Shown here: positions 21,037 through 24,222 of the stretch, in pieces | Layout of the letters: every line of letters starts with the position of its first letter | Position numbering within the stretch: the first letter of the stretch is position 1 | Source of the DNA: Escherichia coli | GTDB lineage: Bacteria; Pseudomonadota; Gammaproteobacteria; Enterobacterales; Enterobacteriaceae | Reading direction: 5' to 3' (one strand) | Assembly (NCBI RefSeq): GCF_045037415.1 | Contig: NZ_CP173438.1 | DNA: 64,000 bases | Notes under the pieces: generated by a model | Told to the model about the DNA's origin: nothing | Seen by the model: only the letters and a program-made list of their open reading frames with translations | The model's database searches: none | Translations under genes and position numbers: made by a program

Positions 21037-24000
21037 ATGAAAAGAATGTTAATCAACGCAACTCAGCAGGAAGAGTTGCGCGTTGCCCTTGTAGATGGGC
21101 AGCGTCTGTATGACCTGGATATCGAAAGTCCAGGGCACGAGCAGAAAAAGGCAAACATCTACAAAGGTAAAATCACCCGCATTGAACCGAGTCTGGAAGC
21201 TGCTTTTGTTGATTACGGCGCTGAACGTCACGGTTTCCTCCCACTAAAAGAAATTGCCCGCGAATATTTCCCTGCTAACTACAGTGCTCATGGTCGTCCC
21301 AACATTAAAGATGTGTTGCGTGAAGGTCAGGAAGTCATTGTTCAGATCGATAAAGAAGAGCGCGGCAACAAAGGCGCGGCATTAACCACCTTTATCAGTC
21401 TGGCGGGTAGCTATCTGGTTCTGATGCCGAACAACCCGCGCGCGGGTGGTATTTCTCGTCGTATCGAAGGCGACGACCGTACCGAATTAAAAGAAGCACT
21501 GGCAAGCCTTGAACTGCCGGAAGGCATGGGGCTTATCGTGCGCACCGCTGGCGTCGGCAAATCTGCTGAGGCGCTGCAATGGGATTTAAGCTTCCGTCTG
21601 AAACACTGGGAAGCCATCAAAAAAGCCGCTGAAAGCCGCCCGGCTCCGTTCCTGATTCATCAGGAGAGCAACGTAATCGTTCGCGCATTCCGCGATTACT
21701 TACGCCAGGACATCGGCGAAATCCTTATCGATAACCCGAAAGTGCTCGAACTGGCACGTCAGCATATCGCTGCATTAGGCCGCCCGGATTTCAGCAGCAA
21801 AATCAAACTGTACACCGGCGAGATCCCGCTGTTCAGCCACTACCAGATCGAGTCGCAGATCGAGTCCGCCTTCCAGCGTGAAGTTCGTCTGCCATCCGGT
21901 GGTTCCATTGTTATCGACAGCACCGAAGCGTTAACGGCCATCGACATCAACTCCGCACGCGCGACCCGCGGCGGCGATATCGAAGAAACCGCGTTTAACA
22001 CCAACCTCGAAGCTGCCGATGAGATTGCTCGTCAGTTGCGCCTGCGTGACCTCGGCGGCCTGATTGTTATCGACTTCATCGACATGACGCCAGTACGCCA
22101 CCAGCGTGCGGTAGAAAACCGTCTGCGTGAAGCGGTGCGTCAGGACCGGGCGCGTATTCAAATCAGCCATATTTCTCGCTTTGGCCTGCTGGAAATGTCC
22201 CGTCAGCGCCTGAGCCCATCACTGGGTGAATCCAGCCATCACGTCTGCCCGCGCTGCTCCGGTACCGGTACCGTTCGTGACAACGAATCGCTGTCGCTCT
22301 CTATTCTGCGTCTGATCGAAGAAGAAGCGCTGAAAGAGAACACCCAGGAAGTTCACGCCATTGTTCCTGTGCCAATTGCTTCTTACCTGCTGAATGAAAA
22401 ACGTTCTGCGGTAAATGCGATTGAAACTCGTCAGGACGGCGTACGCTGTGTGATTGTGCCAAACGATCAGATGGAAACCCCGCACTACCATGTGCTGCGC
22501 GTGCGCAAAGGGGAAGAAACCCCAACCTTAAGCTACATGCTGCCGAAGCTGCATGAAGAAGCGATGGCGCTGCCGTCTGAAGAAGAGTTCGCTGAACGTA
22601 AGCGTCCGGAACAACCTGCGCTGGCAACCTTTGCCATGCCGGATGTGCCGCCAGCACCAACGCCAGCTGAACCTGCCGCGCCTGTCGTAGCCCCAGCACC
22701 TAAATCTGCACCGGCAACACCAGCCGCTCCTGCCCAACCTGGGCTGTTGAGCCGCTTCTTCGGCGCACTGAAAGCGCTGTTCAGCGGTGGTGAAGAAACC
22801 AAACCGTCCGAGCAACCAACACCGAAAGCAGAAGCGAAACCGGAACGTCAACAGGATCGTCGCAAGCCTCGTCAGAACAACCGCCGTGACCGTAATGAGC
22901 GCCGCGACCCTCGTAGTGAACGTACTGAAGGCAGCGATAATCGCGAAGAAAACCGTCGTAATCGTCGCCAGGCACAGCAGCAGACTGCCGAGACGCGTGA
23001 GAGCCGTCAGCAGGCAGAGGTAACGGAAAAAGCGCGTACCACCGACGAGCAGCAAACGCCGCGTCGTGAACGTAGCCGCCGCCGTAACGATGATAAACGT
23101 CAGGCGCAACAAGAAGTGAAGGCGCTGAATGTTGAAGAGCAATCTGTTCAGGAAACCGAACAGGAAGAACGTGTACGTCCGGTTCAGCCGCGTCGTAAAC
23201 AGCGTCAGCTCAATCAGAAAGTGCGTTACGAGCAAAGCGTAGCCGAAGAAGCGGTAGTCGCACCGGTGGTTGAAGAAACTGTCGCAGCCGAACCAATTGT
23301 TCAGGAAGCGGCAGCCCCACGCACAGAATTGGTGAAAGTTCCGCTGCCAGTCGTAGCGCAAACTGCACCAGAACAGCAAGAAGAGAACAATGCTGATAAC
23401 CGTGACAACGGTGGCATGCCGCGTCGTTCTCGCCGCTCGCCTCGTCACCTGCGCGTAAGTGGTCAGCGTCGTCGTCGCTATCGTGACGAGCGTTATCCAA
23501 CCCAGTCGCCAATGCCGTTGACCGTAGCGTGCGCGTCTCCGGAACTGGCCTCTGGCAAAGTCTGGATCCGCTATCCAATTGTACGTCCGCAAGATGTACA
23601 GGTTGAAGAGCAGCGCGAACAGGAAGAAGTACAAGTGCAGCCGATGGTGACTGAGGTCCCTGTCGCCGCCGCTGCCGAACCTGTTGTTAGCGCGCCAGTT
23701 GTTGAAGAAGTGGCTGAAGTCGTAGAAGCCCCCGTTCAGGTTGCCGAACCGCAACCGGAAGTGGTTGAAACGACGCATCCTGAAGTGATTGCTGCCGCGG
23801 TAACTGAACAGCCGCAGGTGATTACCGAGTCTGATGTTGCCGTAGCCCAGGAAGTTGCAGAACACGCAGAACCGGTGGTTGAACCGCAGGAAGAGACGGC
23901 AGATATTGAAGAAGTTGCCGAAACTGCTGAGGTTGTGGTTGCTGAACCTGAAGTTGTTGCTCAACCTGCCGCGCCAGTCGTCGCTGAAGTCACAGCAGAA

Positions 24001-24222
24001 GTTGAAACGGTAGCTGCGGTTGAACCTGAGGTCACCGTTGAGCATAACCACGCTACCGCGCCGATGACGCGCGCTCCGGCACCGGAATATGTTCCGGAAG
24101 CACCGCGTCACAGTGACTGGCAGCGCCCTACTTTTGCCTTCGAAGGTAAAGGTGCCGCAGGTGGTCATACGGCAACGCATCATGCATCTGCCGCTCCTGC
24201 GCGTCCGCAACCTGTTGAGTAA
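21037..24222 (+). CDS. rne: ribonuclease E
   Basis: 1061 aa [33 protein letters not shown]... with S1/catalytic N-terminal half and Arg-rich plus acidic low-complexity C-terminal scaffold. Confidence 0.98.

Follow-up and report, generated by a model that had tools for sequence, protein, structure and literature searches.

An open reading frame (ORF) of 560 codons lies antisense to the C-terminal half of rne, the ribonuclease E (RNase E) gene, in a 64,000-nucleotide stretch of Escherichia coli DNA (contig NZ_CP173438.1 of assembly GCF_045037415.1) that we refer to below as the window. We conclude, with a probability of roughly 95%, that this ORF is a non-functional shadow of the rne coding sequence and not a second gene. 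On the plus strand, rne occupies positions 21037–24222 and encodes 1061 amino acids (aa) followed by a stop codon; on the minus strand, the antisense ORF (22528–24210) runs from a TTG start codon at 24210–24208 to a TAA stop codon at 22530–22528. Both pairs of coordinates, as well as the length of 560 codons, had been proposed in a first-pass annotation made by a model from the sequence alone, and were reproduced exactly by the ORF list. Measured from stop to stop, the antisense frame comprises 565 codons (22531–24225) and is the fourth-longest open frame in the window.

The antisense ORF is aligned codon for codon with rne, the distance between 24208 and 21037 being divisible by 3. Its codons are the reverse complements of rne codons, so that a stop in the shadow frame requires TTA or CTA (Leu) or TCA (Ser) in rne. 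The rne gene contains 10 such codons, all of them at or before codon 498, and the stop codon of the antisense ORF is the reverse complement of the TTA that encodes Leu498. Codons 499–1058 of rne, which lie opposite the antisense ORF, include 15 Leu and 22 Ser codons, none of which is TTA, CTA or TCA. Few antisense stops are to be expected in this region, given that Leu and Ser are scarce in this half of the protein and that TTA, CTA and TCA are rare in E. coli. Leu and Ser account for 2.8% and 3.9% of RNase E residues 498–1061, compared with 10.6% and 6.6% in the other genes of the window; in RNase E's N-terminal half, the corresponding values are 9.9% and 6.6%. Codons 498–1061 of rne encode a long, compositionally biased scaffold for the RNA degradosome, probably unstructured for the most part, and in the lineage of the window no antisense stop happens to occur between the TTA codon of Leu498 and the end of the gene.

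The expected number of antisense stops depends strongly on what is held fixed. For 560 codons with the average composition of a window gene, 15.1 antisense stops are expected and the probability of observing none is 2e-7. With the actual protein sequence and the codon usage of the window, the expectation is 5.3 stops (P of none, 0.003), and with the actual protein and the codon usage of the N-terminal half of rne it is 3.1 (P of none, 0.035). Synonymous recoding of rne in 20,000 trials yielded longest antisense runs with a median of 237 codons, which reached at least 560 codons in 0.35% of the trials. Thus, given the amino acid composition of RNase E and the codon preference of its gene, a very long shadow ORF is the norm; the openness of the frame is mostly due to composition, and the complete lack of stops lies mildly in the tail of expectation. 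Amino acid and codon composition of the sense strand explain the length well for the family, with the window allele in the tail of the distribution. The first-pass annotation held that biased composition keeps the opposite strand open. This captured part of the mechanism, which can now be stated more precisely as depletion of Leu and Ser, avoidance of TTA, CTA and TCA, and some luck.

The same tendency is seen elsewhere in the window. For the 48 other long ORFs, the codon-aligned antisense frame contains 2.70 stops per 100 codons; the values for the two remaining antisense frames are 3.37 and 4.82. The second-longest shadow ORF (6012–7064, plus strand; 351 codons from stop to stop) is also codon-aligned and lies opposite a gene at 6105–7568 on the minus strand that encodes a ptsG-like PTS EIIC/EIIB protein (Pfam PF02378 and PF00367); a Pfam search with the product of this shadow ORF returned no match. 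Long ORFs in frame −1 have been attributed to the codon usage of the annotated gene by Merino 1994 and Silke 1997, as these studies are cited in PMC3454372.

To place the antisense frame in an evolutionary context, we compared 80 rne loci from other species, 79 of which provided full-length orthologues for pooled stop counts. The longest antisense run in these loci has a median of 317 codons, shifts in position between species, and reaches at least 500 codons in 10 of the 80. In the C-terminal half of rne, the number of antisense stops is 5 in Escherichia albertii, 3 in Salmonella, 4–6 in Citrobacter, and 1 in a divergent E. coli allele. The 5 new antisense stops of E. albertii compare with 4.3 expected without selection. 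In the pooled C-terminal halves of the 79 orthologues, 432 antisense stops were observed, versus 308 expected on the codon usage of the respective N-terminal halves, and loci with no antisense stop numbered 3 versus 4.7 expected; the excess of observed over expected stops shows that antisense stops are not avoided. Eight sampled E. coli strains share the open antisense frame of the window. An allele class with CTA at codon 947, a codon confirmed in the two records checked, is carried by 10 of 5,426 complete E. coli genomes; this codon shortens the antisense frame to 448 codons and leaves RNase E at 1061 aa, and its natural occurrence suggests that an interrupted antisense frame is not costly. 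Taken across E. albertii, Salmonella, Citrobacter and this E. coli allele class, the integrity of the ORF does not exceed neutral expectation.

The comparison also revealed considerable variation of rne itself. The C-terminal half is unusually polymorphic in E. coli, with at least 99% identity to the window in only 765 of 5,425 genomes. The divergent allele class, represented by 10 complete genomes, has about 89% DNA and about 92% protein identity to the window in the C-terminal half; the 8 listed genomes with this allele come from pig, pork or cow sources, and the GTDB representative genome has the same allele, which may reflect either a cryptic lineage or import by recombination. In addition, the share of TCA among Ser codons of the 79 pooled species is 14.2% in the C-terminal halves and 6.7% in the N-terminal halves, so codon choice differs between the two halves of rne.

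The pattern of substitutions in the overlap points in the same direction as the stop counts. We counted substitution classes in codons of the overlap that differ at a single position, for which the full set of possible mutations would give a ratio of about 1:1. The ratio of changes that are synonymous in rne and nonsynonymous in the antisense frame to those of the reverse kind is 121:16 in the comparison with E. albertii and 151:7 in that with Salmonella, which shows that selection acts on the RNase E frame. Together, the substitution classes, the lack of stop depletion and the gain of stops at a neutral rate reveal no purifying selection on the antisense frame.

Coding potential was assessed with a codon-usage model trained on 48 long ORFs from elsewhere in the window. 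The log-odds score of the interval is +262 bits on the plus strand and −262 bits for the antisense ORF. The plus-strand score of 0.467 bits per codon is close to that of the window genes (0.459 ± 0.157), and all 17 sliding windows of 60 codons favor the plus strand. A 3-periodic second-order Markov model gave +149.6 bits for the rne frame (0.089 bits per nucleotide (nt); genes, 0.078 ± 0.029) and −110.1 bits for the antisense ORF (−0.066 bits per nt; aligned antisense strands of genes, −0.093 ± 0.052). Higher coding potential on the minus strand, which the first-pass annotation had named as the outcome that would overturn its view, was therefore not observed with either model. One long ORF of the training set scored −0.32 bits per codon against a mean of 0.46 and may be a foreign gene or a wrong-strand pick.

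Expression signals were examined on both strands. A scan confined to sigma-70 consensus sites detected none on either strand between 22300 and 24500. The rne and flgL genes converge and are 194 bp apart, flgL ending at 24417, and a terminator-like hairpin follows each of them. The putative intrinsic terminator of rne (24241–24264, plus strand) consists of a 10-bp stem with 6 G–C pairs followed by a T run (TTTTATTT); that of flgL (24347–24375, minus strand) consists of a 12-bp stem with 9 G–C pairs followed by TTTTTTT and is located upstream of the antisense ORF start. The TTG start codon of the antisense ORF is directly abutted by AGG, which lacks proper Shine–Dalgarno spacing. At the sequence level, the antisense ORF thus shows neither a sigma-70-like promoter nor a properly spaced ribosome-binding site at its TTG start, and we infer that the minus strand of 22528–24210 yields no transcript or protein.

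Database searches were consistent with this picture. The antisense product matches no Pfam family at E ≤ 0.01, and its exact sequence is absent from a collection of 15 billion proteins. A homologue search with the antisense product returned five entries, all of which are antisense-of-rne calls from damaged assemblies. One originates from an NCBI genome in which the locus carries 16 indels and the neighboring genes are fragmented. Others come from two European Nucleotide Archive (ENA) metagenome scaffolds of a single project that have 100-N gaps inside rne; there, the gene caller chose antisense ORFs of 416, 407 and 373 aa over a much longer partial rne at the 100-N run, which suggests a systematic mode of mis-calling at scaffold gaps. 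A further entry (LVRK01000076.1, 4 samples reported) is a contig that folds back on itself at a perfect 13-nt inverted repeat located in the C-terminal half of rne (22752–22764 and 23242–23254 in the window; CCGCTTCTTCGGC and GCCGAAGAAGCGG), with the exact junction at positions 6716–6728 of that record. Its 760-aa product passes from RNase E's N-terminal half in register into the antisense frame and was deposited as 'ribonuclease E, partial'. The fold-back is probably an assembly or library artifact, the other conceivable origin being a real inversion. A literature search found no paper on this antisense ORF or on an antisense gene in rne. The practical value of these observations lies in annotation, as few open frames in the window are longer than the antisense ORF, which can be mistaken for a gene where the rne frame is disrupted. 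The advice of the first-pass annotation that the ORF should not be annotated as a gene is upheld, since codon usage, the Markov model, conservation, substitutions and Pfam all give no sign of a gene.

Several observations nevertheless weigh against reading the ORF as a mere shadow. The absence of stops is improbable even for the actual protein (P 0.003–0.035), and composition alone falls short of 560 codons. The promoter scan covered sigma-70 consensus sites only, and the silence of the minus strand is itself an interpretation of sequence signals. An AGGAG is present 10 nt 5′ of the first in-frame antisense ATG, which is codon 10 of the ORF. The eight sampled E. coli strains have no new antisense stops among 88 unique variants, versus about 2.2 expected (P = 0.11), and the share of E. 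coli amino acid replacements that are silent in the antisense frame is 0.48, versus a naive expectation of 0.32–0.36 (P 0.04–0.11). Observations of this kind could be accommodated by a young overlapping gene, restricted to E. coli and overprinted on the C-terminal half of rne, whose translation would be low or conditional and whose frame would be kept open by weak selection. Such a gene would also fit the length of the ORF, which exceeds that found in 99.65% of synonymous rne recodings, and the openness of the frame in 9 of the 10 E. coli strains first sampled, and it would have precedents in the long frame −1 antisense genes claimed in Pseudomonas on similar statistics plus expression data (PMC8850804). 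We consider it very unlikely. As the recoding P value is only 0.0035, the 560-codon run would not survive a genome-wide correction for several thousand genes, whereas the Pseudomonas cases reach p < 1e-10 in the same kind of test. Stops interrupt the frame in E. albertii, a sister species, and in a naturally occurring allele class of E. coli while RNase E remains intact, antisense stops are not depleted over the 79 orthologues, and the great majority of substitutions are nonsynonymous when read in the antisense frame. The codon-usage and Markov models score the frame like an ordinary antisense strand, no promoter-like site was detected in the sigma-70 scan, a strong flgL terminator lies upstream, and the product has neither a family nor independent homologues. 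The antisense-silent share was weighed separately as a possible antisense-gene signal and rejected. Although this share is higher within E. coli than in comparisons with other genera (0.48 versus 0.27; Fisher P = 0.012), all 15 antisense-silent changes in E. coli are first-position changes, mostly G/A transitions, that produce A/T, V/I(M), S/G and E/K swaps; S/A also belongs to the conservative first-position swaps that are silent in the antisense frame. A model with a kappa of 4–6 and BLOSUM-weighted acceptance predicts a share of 0.42–0.53, and against E. albertii, in which stops interrupt the frame, the share is similar (16/35). The excess thus vanishes with realistic transition bias and protein-level filtering, and transition bias and conservative swaps suffice to account for it.

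A more extreme version of this idea holds that a very young E. coli-specific coding gene occupies the frame, or that the frame serves as a reservoir from which genes arise de novo, with weak translation via read-through or a non-sigma-70 promoter. If so, the missing new stops and the antisense-silent share of 0.48 would represent incipient selection; we regard this version as extremely improbable. It is also conceivable that rne is regulated by a functional non-coding antisense RNA made from the minus strand, to which the open frame would be irrelevant. The convergence of rne and flgL means that read-through from flgKL could in principle generate RNA antisense to rne, and otherwise we found nothing in support. 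The flgL terminator-like hairpin and T run (24375–24347) precede the interval on the minus strand, and no promoter-like site was detected inside the interval in the scan described above. Rfam searches of positions 19000–26000 identified no family besides the rne5 leader, and the rapid DNA divergence of this half between genera, with 50% protein identity and many indels, is unlike what is seen for a conserved structured RNA. A regulatory RNA of this kind therefore appears to us scarcely credible.

The shadow reading draws on the unusual character of the sense strand, and we analyzed RNase E's C-terminal half (codons 498–1061; 22528–24219, plus strand), the noncatalytic, compositionally biased half with the degradosome scaffold, in terms of composition, entropy, conservation and structural coverage. 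Six amino acids make up 70% of residues 498–1061: Glu (14.7%), Ala (14.2%), Val (11.9%), Pro (11.3%), Arg (9.9%) and Gln (8.2%). In sliding windows of 51 aa, the net charge reaches +8 near residue 626 and again +8 near residue 826, and falls to between −11 and −14 across residues 876–976. The first-pass annotation had described this half as Arg-rich and then acidic, quoting an Arg-rich peptide that corresponds to residues 616–649 (nt 22882–22983). This is a fair simplification of what are in fact two Arg-rich blocks, with an acidic block rich in Ala, Glu, Pro and Val after the second. The Shannon entropy of the biased region is 2.5–3.3 bits, compared with 3.5–4.0 bits in the N-terminal half. 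Tandem Repeats Finder detected no tandem DNA repeats between 22400 and 24300, so that the bias is compositional and not repetitive and repeats of the replication-slippage type are not evident in the window allele; a repeat search of the interval returned just short imperfect direct repeats, as is typical for biased coding sequence. The two composition classes published for RNase E, one rich in Arg, Asn and Gln and the other in Ala, Glu, Pro and Val, as well as the reported scarcity of residues including Leu (PMC4435900), match the composition observed in the window.

Disorder of this half is supported by composition, islands of conservation, structural coverage and the literature. Identity to the window residue averages 50% in the C-terminal half and 96% in the N-terminal half over 80 Enterobacterales orthologues. 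The charge–hydropathy margin is +0.084, on the disordered side, for the C-terminal half versus −0.110 for the N-terminal half, and the TOP-IDP score is likewise higher in the C-terminal half; the acidic block at residues 840–1020, taken alone, has a charge–hydropathy value of −0.042, slightly on the 'ordered' side. PDB chains of RNase E that match over their full length cover residues 1–598. Beyond residue 598, the only solved parts are partner-bound peptides (residues 813–850 and 1004–1061), and the PDB contains no structure spanning residues 599–812 or 851–1003. An AlphaFold2 model built from an alignment of 80 Enterobacterales sequences had a mean predicted local distance difference test score (pLDDT) of 45.5, with most of the catalytic half, which is known to be folded, also below 50. 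Since the model performs poorly on the folded half too, it does not discriminate disorder and was not used either way; the alignment was probably too shallow. In the literature, RNase E's C-terminal half is described as the largest region in E. coli predicted to be natively unstructured (PMC5758883), and DISOPRED and biophysical work agree on the disorder of the scaffold (PMC4435900, PMC5758883). As to the proposal in the first-pass annotation that this region is the natively unstructured degradosome scaffold, its biased composition, poor conservation and microdomains are confirmed, and disorder is supported by composition proxies, PDB coverage and published work, the AlphaFold2 model being uninformative.

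Within the poorly conserved C-terminal half, the 80 orthologues define conserved islands at residues 610–622, 639–644, 677–693, 720–728, 792–846, 1007–1031 and 1037–1046, most of which coincide with the published microdomains: MTS (565–582), AR1 (604–644), HBS (719–731), AR2 (796–814), the enolase-binding site EBS (834–850) and the PNPase-binding site PBS (1021–1061) (PMC4435900). On these published coordinates, all the microdomains lie on the plus strand. The MTS maps to 22729–22782; its residues G569, R573, L578, K579 and F582 are conserved in the 80 orthologues, and residues 570–582 form the sole helix that AlphaFold placed within 512–822, with locally higher pLDDT in an overall poor model. 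AR1, the first arginine-rich RNA-binding segment (22846–22968), contains two of the islands (610–622 and 639–644), carries a net charge of +8 and covers most of the Arg-rich peptide quoted earlier. The HBS (23191–23229) coincides with island 720–728, and its residues R719, R720, R723, L725 and R730 are invariant. AR2 and the enolase-binding site (together 23422–23586) fall in island 792–846, which has an identity of 0.91; residues 795–821 are nearly all invariant, and peptides in PDB entries 5ohg and 3h8a span residues 813–850. The PNPase-binding site (24097–24219) is supported by a Pfam PNPase_C match, by peptides in PDB entries 3gcm, 9qh0 and 9ibh, and by islands 1007–1031 and 1037–1046. Such short conserved motifs attach the scaffold to the membrane and serve as binding sites for RNA, RhlB, enolase and PNPase.

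The plus strand of the interval encodes RNase E, as established by the ORF list, Pfam, a named protein cluster and RefSeq. Pfam matches, all far beyond the curated cut-offs, comprise S1 (residues 36–117, 9.3e-13), RNase_E_G (121–391, 1.1e-98), RNase_E_G_Thio (403–488, 1.8e-31) and PNPase_C (1022–1058, E = 1.9e-17). The protein thus has both the N-terminal catalytic half of RNase E, with its S1, RNase E/G catalytic and small (thioredoxin-like) domains, and the noncatalytic C-terminal extension with partner-binding microdomains, the latter evident from PNPase_C, the conserved islands and the PDB peptides. The exact sequence falls in a protein cluster that bears the name ribonuclease E and has 14,856 members, and rne is the sole RefSeq annotation over the interval in all 10 E. 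coli records inspected. The DNA of the interval matches 5,425 of the 5,426 complete E. coli genomes, and among the matches listed rne is the only feature. Upstream of the gene, at 20676–21012 on the plus strand, cmscan identified the autoregulatory element of the rne 5′ untranslated region (Rfam rne5, RF00040) over the full length of the model, scoring 260 bits (E = 1.6e-81) where the gathering score is 180. The gene is flanked by rluC upstream and by flgL/flgK downstream, both on the opposite strand, an arrangement that annotated E. coli records also show. In E. coli strain TUM2330, a gene pair encoding DUF1778 and GNAT-acetyltransferase proteins, resembling a toxin–antitoxin system, is inserted between rne and flgL (positions 3428–4212 of the corresponding locus record); its counterpart in the window is the bare 194-bp gap at 24223–24416.

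Both the disordered scaffold of RNase E and the phenomenon of shadow ORFs are already known, and the biological weight of the present case is small, as coding sequences are known to give rise to long codon-aligned antisense ORFs for statistical reasons. The closest known counterpart on the sense strand is the noncatalytic region of E. coli K-12 RNase E (530–1061), which belongs to the same gene, with the same length of 1061 aa and the same neighbors (rluC and flgL/flgK). The DNA of a K-12-like strain is 97.6% identical over the interval, and the published microdomains and composition classes are as in the window; the differences are allelic only, amounting to about 2.5% amino acid divergence in the C-terminal half, with nothing structural or organizational among them.

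For the antisense strand, two kinds of known systems are relevant. The olg1 and olg2 genes of Pseudomonas aeruginosa (PMC8850804) likewise lie in frame −1 inside an annotated gene, are taxonomically restricted and have a similar length, with overlaps of 957–1536 nt compared with 1683 nt here. In contrast to the rne antisense ORF, with its recoding P value of 0.0035, its lack of a promoter-like site and its frame broken in a sister species and in some E. coli, olg1 and olg2 are supported by RNA-seq, ribosome profiling, mass spectrometry, predicted promoters and recoding values of p < 1e-10. A synonymous-recoding P value of about 0.003 is thus no evidence for an overlapping gene. The frame −1 shadow ORFs described by Merino et al. 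1994, Silke 1997 and Mir et al. 2012 (PMC3454372) resemble the rne ORF more closely: they too are codon-aligned antisense frames whose length is set by the rarity of the three sense codons that, reverse-complemented, read as stops. Compared with the shadow ORFs of PMC3454372, which stresses codon usage and not composition, the rne shadow ORF is unusually long, and we attribute this length to the depletion of Leu and Ser in the disordered region, added to ordinary codon bias. The rne case thereby illustrates that amino acid depletion in a disordered region, besides codon bias, can lengthen a shadow ORF.

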